A DNA stretch of 37,915 nt from a virus. Taxonomy: Duplodnaviria; Heunggongvirae; Uroviricota; Caudoviricetes. A model generated the notes under the pieces. It worked only from the letters and a program-made list of their open reading frames with translations, was not told the origin of the DNA and ran no database searches. Of this stretch, positions 1 to 9,203 are shown in pieces. Position numbers and translations under genes: made by a program. Location of the stretch: IMG/VR virus record IMGVR_UViG_2913123054_000005, positions 1-37,915 of that record; one strand, written 5' to 3'. The stretch's first letter is position 1. Each line of letters starts with the position of its first letter.

Positions 1-1038
1 TTAACGCTTATCAGCCACCAGCTTGAGCGCATGTTCCAGCACGTTAATGTCAGCGCCCGCTTTATGGGCATTTTCACTTAAATACCGCCGCCACTGACGC
101 GCGCCGGGAATCCCCTGGAACAGCCCCAGCATATGCCGGGTGATATGACCGAGATACGTCCCCTGGCTGAGTTCACGCTCAATGTACGGGTACATGGCGC
201 GCACCACTGCCACCGGGTCGGCATCGGTATCCGAGGAACCAAAAATCTCACGATCCACCGCCGCCAGAATGCCTGGGTTTTGATACGCTTCACGCCCGAC
301 CATCACGCCATCCATATGTTGCAGGTGTGCTTTAGCCTCTTCCAGTGACTTGATGCCGCCGTTAATCGACATAGTCAGATGCGGGAAATCACGCTTCAGT
401 TGATAGACGCGCGGGTAATCGAGCGGCGGGATCTCACGGTTTTCTTTTGGGCTTAAACCGGAGAGCCAGGCTTTACGCGCGTGGATGATAAACATCTCGC
501 ATTCGCCTTTGCCGGAAACGGTGTCGATAAAATCACAGAGAAATTCATAGCTGTCCTGGTCGTCAATGCCAATACGCGTTTTCACCGTCACTGGAATCGA
601 CACTACATCGCGCATCGCTTTTACGCAGTCAGCCACCAGTTGCGCATTCCCCATCAGGCACGCGCCAAACATGCCGTTCTGTACCCGGTCTGACGGGCAG
701 CCGACATTCAGGTTGATCTCATCATATCCGCGCGCTTCTGCCAGCTTCGCGCACTGCGCCAGCGCCGCCGGATCGCTACCGCCCAACTGCAACGCCACCG
801 GATGCTCTTCTTCACTGTATGCCAGGTAATCACCTTTACCGTGAATAATCGCCCCTGTGGTCACCATTTCGGTATAGAGCAACGTATTACGGGAGAGCAG
901 ACGCAGGAAATAACGGCAGTGTCTGTCCGTCCAGTCGAGCATGGGAGCAATGCTAAACCGAGAATTCCAGTAAACACCAGTTTTTTCAGGCATCACGCTG
1001 GTTTGATTAATTTTTTGTGTTTCATGATTATCGTGCAT
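1..1038 (-). CDS. dusA: tRNA-dihydrouridine synthase A (complete, 345 aa)
   Basis: Full-length ORF; translation has the Dus-family TIM-barrel flavoenzyme look ([16 protein letters not shown]..., NLNVGCPS). Its start codon abuts the prophage integrase. Confidence 0.85.
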
Positions 1039-1071
1039 TTTTGAACATTTCAGGCTATTTTTCTCGCGTTA

Positions 1072-1106
1072 GGTTCCCGCACAGGTTCCCACGTTTTATG
1101 GGAACC
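1072..1106. promoter_or_regulatory. GGTTCCC direct repeat plus inverted GGGAACC between dusA start and int start; candidate int/dusA control or arm-type site
   Basis: ggttccc at 1072-1078 and 1084-1090, gggaacc at 1100-1106, read directly from sequence. Confidence 0.3.
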
Positions 1107-1126
1107 CGAAATAACGAGGTCGTGTA

Positions 1127-2224
1127 ATGGCGTACTATAACATAGAGAAACGACTAAAATCCGATGGCACACCACGCTATCGCTGTAATGTGATTATCAA
1201 AGAAAAAGGTGTTATCACTTACAGGGAAAGCAAAACATTCCCTAAACATGCTCATGCCAAAACATGGGGCACACAGAAAGTGATGGAATTAGATCTATAT
1301 GGCATTCCATCATCAAATGCAGTTGACGGACTTACAGTCCGTGACTTACTACACAAATATTTAAATGACCCAAATGCCGGAGGTAAAGCAGGCCGTACTA
1401 AAAGATATGTGCTAGAACTGCTTATGGATAGTGACATCTCCGCGATCAAACTATCTGAACTGACAGAAAATGACGTAATTGAACATTGCAGGCTAAGAAA
1501 CAACGCTGGCGCAGGTCCAGCAACAGTCAGCCACGATGTTAGTTATCTTGGCAGTGTTCTGGATGCGGCCAAACCTGTATACGGAATTAATTACACATCA
1601 AACCCGGCGAAAAGTGCTCGTCCATATTTACTTAAACTTGGTTTGATTGGTAAATCATACCGTCGTAATCGTAGACCAGCATCTGATGAACTGGACATGC
1701 TCATTGAAGGCCTTCAACAACGATCTACTCATAAATGCTCAAAAATTCCGTTCGTTGATATCCTCAAATTTTCTGTGTGGTCCTGTATGCGAATCGGAGA
1801 AGTATGCCGGTTACGATGGGAAGATCTCGACCAGGAACAAAAATCTATACTCGTAAGAGACAGGAAAGATCCACGCAAAAAGGAAGGCAACCACATGAAA
1901 GTAGCCTTGCTTGGGGAAGCCTGGGATATCGTCCAACGACAGCCCCAAAAATCGGAATTCATTTTTCCATATAACAGCACTTCTGTTACTGCGGGATTTC
2001 AGAGGGTAAGAAGCAAATTAGGTATTAAGGATCTGCGATACCATGATTTGCGTAGAGAAGGGGCAAGTCGCTTATTTGAGGCTGGTTTTAGTATTGAGGA
2101 AGTCGCCCAGGTTACAGGGCATCGTTCATTAAACGTGCTATGGCAGGTATATACCGAACTGTATCCGAAATCTTTACATAATCGTTTTGAAGAGCTCCAA
2201 AGGAGCAGAAATAAGACCTCTTGA
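1127..2224 (+). CDS. int: Tyrosine-type site-specific integrase (dusA-associated)
   Basis: 365 aa; C-terminal catalytic region with H-x-x-R (YHDLRREGAS) and later GHRS...Y motifs; divergent from and adjacent to the dusA 5' end. Confidence 0.85.
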   Translation: MAYYNIEKRLKSDGTPRYRCNVIIKEKGVITYRESKTFPKHAHAKTWGTQKVMELDLYGIPSSNAVDGLTVRDLLHKYLNDPNAGGKAGRTKRYVLELLMDSDISAIKLSELTENDVIEHCRLRNNAGAGPATVSHDVSYLGSVLDAAKPVYGINYTSNPAKSARPYLLKLGLIGKSYRRNRRPASDELDMLIEGLQQRSTHKCSKIPFVDILKFSVWSCMRIGEVCRLRWEDLDQEQKSILVRDRKDPRKKEGNHMKVALLGEAWDIVQRQPQKSEFIFPYNSTSVTAGFQRVRSKLGIKDLRYHDLRREGASRLFEAGFSIEEVAQVTGHRSLNVLWQVYTELYPKSLHNRFEELQRSRNKTS

Positions 2225-6242: not shown

Positions 6243-7321
6243 CAGAACGGGTCCTCCTGTACTCTGGCTTTTTTCTTTTTCCGCGCGCCGGGGGCTTCGG
6301 GTTCAGGCAGATAAGCATCAGGCGGGCCGACACGGATTTCCGTCAGGGTGCCGTTCTGGTCCTGAGTAAACGTGACTTCCGAAACAAGCAGTTCGGTATT
6401 GTCGAAACCACAGACCGGATCAAAGACAATCACCCGCTGGTTGGGCTGCCACAGCGTACCGTTACCTTGTCGCCAGCCCTGCACCACATAGGTGGTTTCA
6501 TCCGTCCGCGCCGCCCGTTGTCGGGCTTCAAAGTCCGCACGGGCAATACAGCCTGCCCCCGTAGCCTGCCCTGTCTGCCTGATATACATCGGACGGTAAC
6601 GGGCAATAAATGCGTCCTCTGTGCGGGCCCGCAGCGCGGTGGTGGTGGCCTCACCGAAATCATCGTCGTTTCCGGCACGCTGCCCCGCCACCTGGTAAAC
6701 AGAAAATCGCTCCCGGATACTCTTCTCCGTATCGCAGGAAAGGATGTTTTCCCCGAGTACCAGCGCAGTATGTGCCCGCGTTGAGCCAATACCGCCAATC
6801 ACCAGCCTGCCGTGCGGGTCGTCGTAAGCCAGTGCCTGCTGCTGACCGAGTATTTTGTTGATTACCTCAATCACTGTTTCACCGTGATCAGGCTGAACAT
6901 CAGGAATAACACCCGACGGCGCACCGCTGTTCACCACCTCAATGCCGAAAGGCGCAGCAAGCGCCTGCGCAATCTGCACCAGCGAGCGTCCGTTAAACTG
7001 TGTCGGTTCGGCTGCACAGTCAATCAGGTCAGCCGTCAGACTACGTCCGGCAATACCGGTGCTGACCGAACGGGCATCGTAACGAACGGGAGTCGCCTCC
7101 ACCCAGCCGGTGATCACCAGCTCATCACCAATCAGCACTTCCACTTTTGAACCGTTTTTAATGCGCGGCTGAAGCGTGGTGATACCCTCATCTCCCGGCC
7201 ACTGGCGGGTGATCTCCACACTGAAATCCCGCGCCAGCCGTTCAATACCGGCACCGATGCGCACCGATGTCCAGCCATTCCACTCCCGGCCATTTACCCG
7301 TAGCGTGACATTGTCGTTCAT
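6242..7321 (-). CDS. Baseplate hub / late control D-like protein (Mu gp44-like)
   Basis: 359 aa; synteny between the DNA circulation gene and the spike gene. Confidence 0.55.
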   Translation of the reverse strand: MNDNVTLRVNGREWNGWTSVRIGAGIERLARDFSVEITRQWPGDEGITTLQPRIKNGSKVEVLIGDELVITGWVEATPVRYDARSVSTGIAGRSLTADLIDCAAEPTQFNGRSLVQIAQALAAPFGIEVVNSGAPSGVIPDVQPDHGETVIEVINKILGQQQALAYDDPHGRLVIGGIGSTRAHTALVLGENILSCDTEKSIRERFSVYQVAGQRAGNDDDFGEATTTALRARTEDAFIARYRPMYIRQTGQATGAGCIARADFEARQRAARTDETTYVVQGWRQGNGTLWQPNQRVIVFDPVCGFDNTELLVSEVTFTQDQNGTLTEIRVGPPDAYLPEPEAPGARKKKKARVQEDPF

Positions 7322-8658
7322 TGCACTGGCACCTTCAGAGGGATCACCGGCACAAAGCCGGGATGCGTAATGGCATTACGCCGGATAATGTCCGCGTCAC
7401 GCGCCGCGTTATCAAACCAGGTCGCCGCCAGCACCAGCGCGGGTAAAACCTCATCCGGTGTGCGCTGAATGATCCGTGCAGACTGTTCAAGGCGCGTGTT
7501 GATATCCGCATTCAGATCTGCTTTCACCCGGCGCAGCGCCAGAAACAGCGCATCGCTGGTTGTACGGGACAACTCCTTATCAATTGCCGTATTCAGTGTG
7601 TCGCGAATGTCAGTCAGTTCTTCCCACGTCGGCAGGTCAACCGTGTTTTTCACCGCCGGTGCATTGTTCAGTGCCGGATGCGTGACGGAAGGCCAGCCAG
7701 TGCTCTGCGCGGGTGTTGTTGCCTGCCCCACTGCGGAATTCTGCATCACCGCGGAAGTTGTTGGCGCAGGCAATCGGGTGACGGCATACGCCGCTTCGCT
7801 GATTGCGGTCGTACGAAGGGTGCTGGCAACCACGTTACGCTGCTGCGTCGCCGTGGCGGTGGTTTTACTGTCCGTTTTCCAGACGCCGCGCGGTTGCAGA
7901 TCGCTGCCGAGGCTGACACCGGAAAGCGTTTTGATCATGGTGACCAGGTCGCTGGCGTTACCATAAAGGCGTTTCCCGGTACGCCACATTTTCTGCACCT
8001 GCTCAACGAAATTTTTGCCTGACGATGGCGGCGGCAGAAGTACCGAGATATCCCCCTGCAACAGCCTGGCGGCATCCGATACGGCAGAATCCACCACTTT
8101 CATCGCATCAGAAACATACCCCAGCATTATGCTGGCATTACCGATAACGTCGTTCTGCACGAAATCCGCCACACCATCGATACTGAAACCGCTGAAGCTG
8201 TCACTGATGCAGTCATCCAGTGCAGAACAGGATGACATCAGCGTCTGCGCCGTCGCCGCACCTGATGTGGGGTAAGAGAGTTCTCCTGCTTCGACAAACT
8301 TCAGGTCAAAGCGGACAATACGCCCTTCACTTTTCGATGTGCTGACCCGAACTTCCCCGTCAACACAGACTTTCAGCTCACCATATGTCGGGTGGACAAG
8401 CGTGCCGGGACCGGGTTTATTCAGCGCTTCAATCAGGCGATCGCGCTGGTCAAAGCAGTCATCTCCCACCACATAAGCTGTGATGGACGGGCGGAAAGTG
8501 ATTTTCCCCAGGTCTTCGGTATAGGGTTTGTCGCGGTTTGGGTATTCATGCGTTTCAACCCGACGTCCTACCGGGGCCCCTTCATCTTCTACCTTGAACG
8601 GAACGCCGCGAAACGACGCTTCAACCAGTCTGTCTTTCCACGCCATTGTCTGCACCAA
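7318..8658 (-). CDS. DNA circulation protein-like tail protein (Mu gp43-like)
   Basis: 446 aa; lies downstream of the tape measure on the late strand as in Mu-like tails. Confidence 0.55.
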   Translation of the reverse strand: MVQTMAWKDRLVEASFRGVPFKVEDEGAPVGRRVETHEYPNRDKPYTEDLGKITFRPSITAYVVGDDCFDQRDRLIEALNKPGPGTLVHPTYGELKVCVDGEVRVSTSKSEGRIVRFDLKFVEAGELSYPTSGAATAQTLMSSCSALDDCISDSFSGFSIDGVADFVQNDVIGNASIMLGYVSDAMKVVDSAVSDAARLLQGDISVLLPPPSSGKNFVEQVQKMWRTGKRLYGNASDLVTMIKTLSGVSLGSDLQPRGVWKTDSKTTATATQQRNVVASTLRTTAISEAAYAVTRLPAPTTSAVMQNSAVGQATTPAQSTGWPSVTHPALNNAPAVKNTVDLPTWEELTDIRDTLNTAIDKELSRTTSDALFLALRRVKADLNADINTRLEQSARIIQRTPDEVLPALVLAATWFDNAARDADIIRRNAITHPGFVPVIPLKVPVQ

Positions 8659-8674
8659 TATGATTTGTTATAAG
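8646..8674 (+). promoter_or_regulatory. Candidate sigma70 promoter for the moron (TTGTCT, 17 bp spacer, TATAAG)
   Basis: ttgtct at 8646-8651, tataag at 8669-8674; a cgcttc/gaagcg palindrome follows; SD aaggagagg precedes ATG 8739. Confidence 0.35.
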
Positions 8675-8738
8675 CTACTCTGTTTCAGACGCTTCTTTCG
8701 AAGCGCCAGAGAACATTTACCTTTAAGGAGAGGTATAA

Positions 8739-9176
8739 ATGGAAATGTTTTTGCCGTTAATACTGGGTTTGTTGCTAGCCGTTTTCATAGGACGGTGGGC
8801 TTATAAAAAAGAAAAGACCAAGCCCAGAAAAATAATGGCTGCTCTTCTCGGTGCTGTTTTTGGATTCTTCGCACCACTGATAATCGCAGCGTTTGTTATG
8901 ACTCCCCCAGAAAAAGAAAAAACTAAAGAGGAGCTTGTTATGGCAAAGCTCACACGCTCTTTGGATGGTTGTCCACTTGATATGAAAGATCGCGTGAAAG
9001 AATCAATGAATGATCCCGATAGTTTTGAATGTATCGAAACTAACGTTATACGTCGTAAAGATGATTACGTCATGATCATGCAGTTCCGTGGCAAAAACCA
9101 ATTAGGGGGAATGGTTAAAAATGTCGCCAAGGCGGAATATGACTCAGAGGGAAATTTCGCAAGGTTCATCAATTAA
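8739..9176 (+). CDS. Membrane-anchored moron protein (two predicted TM helices plus soluble C-terminal domain), function unknown
   Basis: 145 aa on the strand opposite to all flanking tail genes; strong SD; N-terminus has two hydrophobic helices each followed by a K/E-rich EKEKTK-like stretch. Confidence 0.65.
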   Translation: MEMFLPLILGLLLAVFIGRWAYKKEKTKPRKIMAALLGAVFGFFAPLIIAAFVMTPPEKEKTKEELVMAKLTRSLDGCPLDMKDRVKESMNDPDSFECIETNVIRRKDDYVMIMQFRGKNQLGGMVKNVAKAEYDSEGNFARFIN

Positions 9177-9180
9177 AAAC

Positions 9181-9203
9181 AATGGGAGGTTTACCCTCCC
9201 ATT
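9181..9203 (-). terminator. Hairpin overlapping the tape-measure stop codon, followed on the minus strand by GTTTTTAATT; moron boundary
   Basis: aatgggagg / cctcccatt 9-bp perfect stem with the taa stop in the loop. Confidence 0.5.

Follow-up and report, generated by a model that had tools for sequence, protein, structure and literature searches.

A gene for a 145-amino-acid (aa) protein, located between the tail tape-measure gene and the DNA circularization gene of an SfV-like prophage, almost certainly represents an accessory, non-structural cassette. The prophage was analysed over the full 37,915 nucleotides of the IMG/VR virus record IMGVR_UViG_2913123054_000005, referred to here as the window. 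The gene is carried on the plus strand and both of its neighbours on the minus strand, and the open reading frame (ORF), the neighbours and the strands were all confirmed as given in a first-pass annotation made from the letters of the window. The reading adopted for the element as a whole, tentatively and at slightly less than even weight, is that of a moron cassette that would be expressed in the lysogen and would provide superinfection exclusion from the inner membrane. A phage moron is extra DNA of deviant composition that has its own promoter and its own terminator and is expressed from the repressed prophage (Juhala 2000, PMC3594210). The coordinates of all features are given in Table 1.

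The borders of the cassette were defined by pairwise BLAST, in which homology with phage SfII and with the related loci L003-L005 ended at position 8646, the start codon of the DNA circularization gene, and homology with L003 was picked up again at position 9191, the stop codon of the tape-measure gene. The guanine-plus-cytosine (GC) fraction of the cassette was 0.40-0.415, compared with approximately 0.55-0.58 for the left flank and approximately 0.49 for the tape-measure gene, and in all five loci measured the 145-aa gene had a GC of 0.33-0.41 compared with 0.47-0.60 for the flanking genes. No cargo occupies the slot in SfI, SfII and SfV, where the tape-measure and DNA circularization genes are approximately 60 bp apart and the interval consists of a hairpin-plus-T-run terminator and the DNA circularization Shine-Dalgarno sequence. 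In an evenly spaced sample of E. coli prophages with both flanks aligned, the slot was empty in 20 of 33 and had other content in 13 of 33. The element therefore shows two of the properties of a moron, extra DNA between genes that are adjacent in relatives and a base composition unlike that of its neighbours.

At least five unrelated cargoes, the 145-aa gene included, were seen in the slot between the tape-measure and DNA circularization genes. The alternative cargoes, at least four in number, appear from their sequences to be unrelated and mostly envelope-targeted. They comprise a transmembrane (TM)-anchored tRNA_anti-like OB-fold protein, which is also antisense to the operon, a 225-aa lipoprotein, a bPH_1 protein and a 164-aa signal-peptide protein. 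None of these showed any resemblance to the 145-aa protein by sequence comparison or Pfam, and a comparison with the OB-fold cargo of L003, likewise antisense, gave no homology. In one strain, CX12, the slot is occupied by IS1. The cargoes were also counted in 5,426 complete E. coli genomes as cargo DNA present anywhere in the genome, irrespective of slot position. DNA of the 145-aa gene was present in 5 genomes, plus one IS1-truncated stub, the OB-fold allele of L003 in 7, the bPH_1 protein in 28, the 225-aa lipoprotein in 55 and the 164-aa secreted protein in 85, compared with 1,094 genomes for the flanking DNA circularization gene. This distribution is not that of a universal structural tail component, the possibility against which the first-pass annotation had set its moron assignment; the gene is absent from most E. 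coli relatives of these SfV-like phages and is antisense to the operon. The moron assignment itself received strong support from the comparison with relatives, the gene being absent from SfI, SfII, SfV and most others, replaced by unrelated genes, aberrant in GC and antisense.

Full-length homologues of the 145-aa protein in the protein database had identities of 63-99%, and every homologue for which the context was fetched was in the same slot and in the same antisense orientation, between PhageMin_Tail tape-measure and DNA_circ_N neighbours. Nine diverged lineages, that of the window included, were obtained from E. coli, Citrobacter meridianamericanus, Buttiauxella izardii and metagenomes, with protein identities of 56-96% between the lineages and 63-88% to the window copy. 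The alignment of eleven full-length homologues contained no insertions or deletions, and pairwise comparison gave nonsynonymous distances (dN) of 0.16-0.33 with saturated synonymous distances (dS). The lack of insertions and deletions together with a saturated dS at a dN of approximately 0.2 indicates that the reading frame is under strong purifying selection. The 145-aa ORF is a genuine, selected coding gene with a long history in the slot.

The divergence of the gene was compared with that of its neighbours. At four loci the identity to the window copy was 63-75% for the 145-aa protein, 69-74% for the DNA circularization protein and approximately 75% for the sheath. Across the nine lineages the distances of the 145-aa protein correlated with those of the DNA circularization protein (Mantel r 0.48, p ~0.007); the corresponding values were r 0.38 (p ~0.015) for the last 150 residues of the tape-measure protein and r 0.06 (p ~0.31) for the whole tape-measure protein. 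Co-evolution with the tape-measure protein as a sign of a specific interaction was rejected, as the distances track only the immediately adjacent DNA. The co-divergence of the gene with its close neighbours is explained by linkage and contains nothing specific to function. The tape-measure proteins themselves have two body types that are approximately 40% identical, while their last 150 residues are 63-83% identical (window 9191-10966, L006, L007, L009, L011, L021-L024), indicating recombination breakpoints inside the tape-measure gene. Two decayed prophages were also observed. In strain 14EC033 (L019, NZ_CP024147, 3001-3143) IS1 cuts the 145-aa gene after 143 bp and nothing remains of the late operon between that point and the early region, and in strain ET5 (L020, NZ_CP101014, 3214-4746) an IS66 element lies in the tape-measure gene, just past the 145-aa gene.

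The properties of the 145-aa protein were examined using hydropathy analysis and AlphaFold2. Hydropathy gave hydrophobic segments at residues ~3-21 and ~31-55. The AlphaFold2 model, calculated from a 22-sequence alignment, had a mean predicted local distance difference test score (pLDDT) of 88.9 and consisted of a hairpin of helices 5-24 and 28-53 (pLDDT about 90), a linker, helices 63-72 and 80-88 and four beta strands, with the C-terminal domain modelled at a pLDDT above 90. Both methods agree with the two TM helices followed by a soluble domain that had been described at first pass. The inter-helix loop WAYKKEKTKPRKI contains six lysine or arginine residues and one glutamate, and the N-terminus lacks positive charge, so that the positive-inside rule places the loop in the cytoplasm and both termini and the C-terminal domain in the periplasm. 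The sequence and the model together make it likely that the protein is an inner-membrane anchor with a predicted periplasmic domain. In distant relatives the domain is preceded by a single N-in anchor helix, which itself often follows a cytoplasmic zinc ribbon, and this arrangement agrees with the periplasmic topology. Cys78 and Cys98 co-occur in all enterobacterial members of the family and neither is present in the others; the pair probably fits a periplasmic disulfide. The most conserved part of the protein is the folded, predicted-periplasmic domain and not the helices, and the C-terminal motifs are MNDPDS and FRGKNxxGG..VKN. The similar charged stretches noted earlier are real, a KEKTK pentapeptide following each of the hydrophobic segments, but the internal duplication of a TM helix with KEKTK that had been read from them is unproven, as the local alignment was marginal (p ~0.02 compared with shuffles) and the homologues do not keep the repeat.

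A profile of the C-terminal domain (residues 58-145) matched 4,845 cluster representatives at E <= 1e-3, 2,485 of them at 1e-10. The domain is always C-terminal and is found in proteins of 100-550 aa from many phyla. The window protein matched PHROG 3403 with an E of 2.6e-7 over residues 75-135, the C-terminal domain alone being shared, and all 22 family members matched this group (best 2e-27), for which PHROG lists the function as unknown. In Aeromonas phage LPM4 the domain is part of a 345-aa protein encoded between the repressor and the integrase, and in Vibrio phage VHML it is part of ORF47 at the end of the tail operon. A Gilliamella P2-like prophage encodes it in a 286-aa protein between gpA and the portal gene, and in Kalamiella it is found in a 99-aa protein encoded beside gpA. 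These contexts suggest that the domain has been recruited repeatedly to accessory loci of temperate phages. The Gilliamella gpA-to-portal interval (L038 4540-6452) also holds a 259-aa protein with a protein-kinase domain, directly downstream of gpA.

Scans of the 145-aa protein and its relatives against Pfam, NCBIfam and PADLOC gave no significant match, and Pfam has no family for the domain. When the Pfam scan was relaxed to E <= 10, five weak matches driven by the TM segments were obtained, none of them to YebO or to an inhibitor family. The best PADLOC match among the 22 family members was to LeoB (E 0.0018), followed by PDC-M38B (0.0044), neither of which is significant. Sequence searches of the PDB with the protein and with the domain profile gave chance matches only, and Rfam contained no RNA family matching window positions 8300-9600. 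No paper was found in the literature on WP_061350224.1 or on a moron at this SfV-type slot. Neither the protein family nor the slot has been described, while the small-envelope-protein moron is a well-known kind of element.

The region upstream of the gene contains a candidate sigma-70 promoter (Table 1). A TG at 8666-8667 gives an extended -10 element, TGtTATAAG (8666-8674), and the candidate -35 hexamer overlaps the start codon of the DNA circularization gene on the opposite strand. A TATA(A/G/T)N box is located 24-29 nt from the DNA circularization ATG in seven of eight lineages, and the upstream regions of the eight share little sequence beyond this box, a T-rich -35 region over the start codon and a GAGG core. 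These conserved upstream boxes form a phylogenetic footprint that is consistent with a promoter. The strong Shine-Dalgarno sequence claimed in the first-pass annotation, AAGGAGAGG, was read directly in the sequence ahead of the ATG, and its GAGG core is retained in most homologous loci.

The cassette also alters the signals in front of the DNA circularization gene. The sequence CGGAGTTTATATG is kept in relatives with an empty slot, with sense-strand cargo or with OB-fold cargo, and is missing before the DNA circularization gene in all lineages that carry the 145-aa gene, which keep only a GGTG approximately 7 nt upstream. The usual GGAGTTTATATG Shine-Dalgarno region is exchanged for a weaker GGTG in the cassette-bearing phages. 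The ORF listing contains an alternative TTG start for the DNA circularization gene at 8658, and this start together with the loss of CGGAGTTTATATG suggests that translation of the DNA circularization gene may differ in cassette-bearing phages.

The perfect 9-bp hairpin reported at the 3' end of the 145-aa gene was confirmed, with the tape-measure stop codon (9191-9193) contained in the loop and a folding energy of -13.9 kcal/mol (z -3.6). The right arm of the hairpin is formed by the last codons of the tape-measure gene (..M G G stop) and the left arm lies inside the cassette. The stem is kept in all eight lineages aligned, with compensatory changes, and the left arm varies in step with the right, for example with GGC pairing to GCC in two lineages. 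Only on the minus strand is the stem followed by a T-run, GTTTTTAATT, and the terminator scan called a minus-strand terminator. With this arrangement, and with no U-tract on the plus strand, the hairpin was read as resembling an intrinsic terminator of the tail-operon strand. A hairpin with a T-run was present on the late-operon strand in all backbones examined, with or without cargo, positioned after the tape-measure gene or the sense-strand cargo and right before the DNA circularization Shine-Dalgarno sequence. From this sequence comparison, a terminator in the middle of the tail operon is a constant of the phage group, which the Q-modified polymerase presumably reads through, and the hairpin of the window is best seen as the putative local version of the terminator found behind the tape-measure gene in other backbones. 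A hairpin of this kind also closes the unrelated OB-fold cassette, which is antisense as well. The hairpin may stabilise the 3' end of the transcript of the 145-aa gene or act weakly on it, and a plausible alternative stop is the action of Rho on the antisense tape-measure RNA, which is rich in C and poor in G (GC skew -0.16 to -0.28).

In the proposed role, a weak sigma-70 promoter over the DNA circularization start codon would drive transcription of the 145-aa gene against the direction of the late operon, and the product would appear in the lysogen, where the late operon is not expressed. During lytic growth the gene would be turned off by late transcription that is antiterminated by Q and converges on it, and the antisense orientation suggests that the gene is on only while the late operon is off. 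Expression in lysogens is, on this basis, somewhat favoured. The product would insert in the inner membrane as a two-helix hairpin with the basic loop in the cytoplasm, displaying in the periplasm a folded domain of approximately 85 residues, probably with a disulfide between Cys78 and Cys98. Superinfection exclusion is the likeliest role for this domain, which would encounter the tape-measure machinery or the tail tip of an infecting phage at the inner membrane and would prevent entry of the DNA. Exclusion of phages at the injection step is possible by analogy with known systems, though it is held with more doubt than expression is; the predicted periplasm-facing topology and the recurrence of the domain in phage accessory loci both help the case for superinfection exclusion.

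Several observations weigh against lysogenic expression and exclusion. Promoter-like sites were no commoner than in shuffled sequence, with 2 found by the consensus scan compared with 1.7 expected; the TTGTCT/TATAAG pair is missing from the list of that scan, which accepts a -10 element only with a T at position 6. No T-run or U-tract follows the stem on the strand of the 145-aa gene in any of the eight aligned lineages. The domain is found mostly in non-phage bacterial proteins across many phyla, and so need not have a phage-directed function. The co-divergence of the gene with its neighbours would also fit a role in the biology of the phage itself. The promoter and terminator attributed to the cassette in the first-pass annotation accordingly stand only in part: the hexamers and the 17 bp spacing are present and the -10-like box is conserved in position, although the scan gave no excess over chance, and the hairpin is conserved although its T-run belongs to the tail-operon strand.

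The product of the HK97 gp15 moron, functionally the nearest precedent, is reportedly a YebO-like superinfection exclusion protein (Juhala 2000, Cumby 2012). It is an inner-membrane protein, encoded by a moron beside the tape-measure gene, that blocks genome entry in a tail- and tape-measure-dependent manner (PMC3594210). In both phages there is a single small gene next to the tape-measure gene in the tail operon, with aberrant GC and absent from close relatives, and both products are inner-membrane proteins, by prediction in the case of the 145-aa gene. The two proteins have no sequence relationship, and the 145-aa protein has no YebO match in Pfam. The gp15 gene lies between the tail assembly chaperone and tape-measure genes, whereas the 145-aa gene lies after the tape-measure gene and is antisense; the 145-aa protein also differs in its two TM helices and its folded, predicted-periplasmic domain of ~85 aa. 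The tail of the window prophage is of the contractile Mu type, while that of HK97 is a siphovirus tail. A domain that is anchored in the inner membrane and exposed to the periplasm, as predicted here, would be in a good position to act likewise on a tail of the Mu type.

SieA of P22, Imm and Sp of T4 and Ltp of TP-J34 are exclusion proteins, either membrane proteins or lipoproteins, that prevent the injection of DNA. SieA, for which three TM helices are predicted, is active against P22-like podoviruses. The site of action of SieA and of Ltp is the DNA-entry conduit or the tape-measure protein (PMC10883804). All of these resemble the 145-aa protein, as predicted, in being envelope proteins of a phage or prophage placed to meet the DNA-delivery conduit; however, no homology to any of these was found in Pfam, NCBIfam or PADLOC, and topology, size and genomic position differ. 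VHML ORF47 and the LPM4 345-aa protein share the C-terminal MNDPDS...FRGKN domain with the 145-aa protein, at 35-40% identity by tblastn, and also occupy accessory positions in temperate phages, but they are longer (242-345 aa), have other N-terminal parts and are encoded at other loci. The interval between gpA and the portal gene of P2 is a defence hotspot (Rousset 2022, PMC9122126). This cos-proximal old/tin hotspot resembles the SfV-type slot in being a fixed inter-gene position with interchangeable, unrelated accessory genes, and the Gilliamella homologue of the domain lies in a P2-type slot. The phage family and the position are different, as the slot of the window is inside the tail operon, and the P2 hotspot carries multi-gene cytoplasmic defence systems whereas the SfV-type slot carries single small proteins that are mostly envelope-targeted by prediction. 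The moron of SfIV reportedly lies elsewhere, between Q and the lysis genes.

Four other explanations were weighed, and rank in decreasing order of probability as an envelope factor, an abortive-infection pore, a role in the phage's own cycle and an RNA without a protein function. It is unlikely that the gene encodes a lysogenic-conversion factor of the envelope that is not aimed at phages, with a periplasmic domain that binds or inhibits a periplasmic enzyme or toxin, such as a peptidoglycan hydrolase, a type VI effector or a bacteriocin, or that modulates envelope physiology for the benefit of the host in the manner of Bor and Lom. Matches at the level of the fold are weak and generic, no match to an inhibitor family was obtained, and the phage-borne copies of the domain sit where phage-exclusion genes usually sit. 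A small two-TM protein in a prophage accessory slot would also suit an abortive-infection or membrane-depolarising effector, in which the hairpin oligomerises to a pore on a phage trigger and the periplasmic domain is the sensor, and there are weak, non-significant PADLOC matches to the candidate PDC-M38B (best E 0.0044). This explanation is improbable, however, as the 544-bp cassette contains no partner antitoxin or sensor gene, the folded periplasmic domain is more conserved than the helices, and the distant relatives have a single anchor.

The remaining two explanations are poorly compatible with the comparative data. A contribution to the phage's own lytic cycle, as an accessory of tail assembly, injection or lysis and not as a moron, would account for the stable linkage to the tail module in nine lineages and for the co-divergence with the DNA circularization gene, but is very improbable: Q-dependent late transcription runs antisense to the gene and so cannot express it, most relatives lack it, as do the viable phages SfI, SfII and SfV, unrelated genes substitute for it and the lysis cassette is elsewhere. 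Least probable is that the ORF is incidental and that an antisense RNA, or a terminator between the tape-measure and DNA circularization genes, regulates tail-gene dosage. The terminator-like hairpin behind the tape-measure gene is indeed constant in the backbone with or without cargo, and a transcript of the cassette would converge on the tape-measure gene, yet the 145 codons are under strong purifying selection, the fold is predicted with confidence, the domain family is large and no Rfam match was obtained.

If the preferred reading of phage exclusion is true, the 145-aa protein would be a tool for studying the passage of contractile Mu-type tails through the periplasm and the inner membrane, and would provide a first function for a large unannotated extracytoplasmic domain family. 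To our knowledge, exclusion proteins have been far less studied for contractile Mu-type tails than for siphoviruses and podoviruses. The slot is filled in approximately 40% of the sampled relatives and so offers a compact, easily cloned panel of candidate prophage envelope defences of E. coli. The broadest version of the proposal is rather unlikely, namely that the gene founds a new superinfection-exclusion family, built on a widespread undescribed extracytoplasmic domain and directed, from the inner membrane, against DNA delivery by phages with contractile Mu-type tails, and that the slot is a dedicated, undescribed hotspot of interchangeable envelope-located anti-phage genes. If none of this holds, the element would be an ordinary moron without an assigned function.

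Table 1. Positions of the 145-aa gene, its cassette and related features (window coordinates unless a locus is named)
Feature	Position	Strand	Basis or remarks
DNA circularization gene (Mu gp43-like)	7318-8646	-	Left flank of cassette
Candidate sigma-70 promoter	8646-8674	+	-35 TTGTCT 8646-8651, 17-nt spacer, -10 TATAAG 8669-8674; sequence read
Variable cargo cassette, 544 bp	8647-9190	.	Exact interval from DNA circularization start codon to tape-measure stop codon
Shine-Dalgarno region of DNA circularization gene, comparison	8647-8665; L002 2348-2360; L003 1848-1860		Window versus L002 and L003
Shine-Dalgarno sequence AAGGAGAGG	8725-8733	+	8 nt before ATG
Coding sequence, 145-aa protein WP_061350224.1	8739-9176	+	PGAP: hypothetical protein, in 100%-identical NZ_AP027800
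Predicted transmembrane helical hairpin, residues 5-24 and 28-53	8751-8897	+	Hydropathy, charge count, AlphaFold2
Linker and conserved C-terminal alpha+beta domain, residues 58-145	8910-9173	+	Alignments, PHROG 3403 match, model
Terminator-like hairpin 9181-9189/9195-9203 with T-run GTTTTTAATT (9180-9171)	9171-9203	-	Perfect 9-bp stem
Terminator-like hairpins of backbones	L002 2357-2395 (SfII); L004 ~1858-1890; L005 ~1858-1890; window 9171-9203
Tail tape-measure gene	9191-10966	-	Right flank; PF10145 recorded for homologous loci
Alternative cargoes (OB-fold antisense, lipoprotein, bPH_1, 164-aa)	L003 1974-2426; L016 1076-1462; L004 1901-2578; L005 1911-2288; L015 1138-1632
KilA-N protein and small hypothetical gene	~21808-22796	-	Between lysis and terminase genes
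122-aa hypothetical gene	~32004-32372	+	Directly downstream of LexA-family repressor (rex-like position)
Nmad5-family putative nucleotide-modification protein	~33297-33920	+

The window contains a lambdoid prophage with CI, Cro and CII, a Q antiterminator, holin and endolysin genes, an HK97-type head and a Mu-type contractile tail, and among named phages it is closest to SfI, SfII and SfV, which convert the serotype of Shigella. The late operon of approximately 23 kb is driven by the Q-type antiterminator, and the lysis cassette is located elsewhere in the prophage. The 145-aa ORF is the sole plus-strand gene in this operon, every other annotated gene from the Q gene to the tail-fibre assembly gene being on the minus strand. 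With window positions 7800-10000 as the query, the chromosome NZ_AP027800 was 100% identical, and the prophage in that chromosome adjoins tRNA-Thr and proA. The RefSeq annotation of the identical chromosome indicates other possible accessory genes in the prophage, which are given in the last three rows of Table 1. The tail-fibre end (window 1-1590) abuts CP4-6-type genes, namely yafX, ykfG and the toxin-antitoxin pair yafW/ykfI, and the tail-fibre gene of the prophage looks short, at 266 aa.

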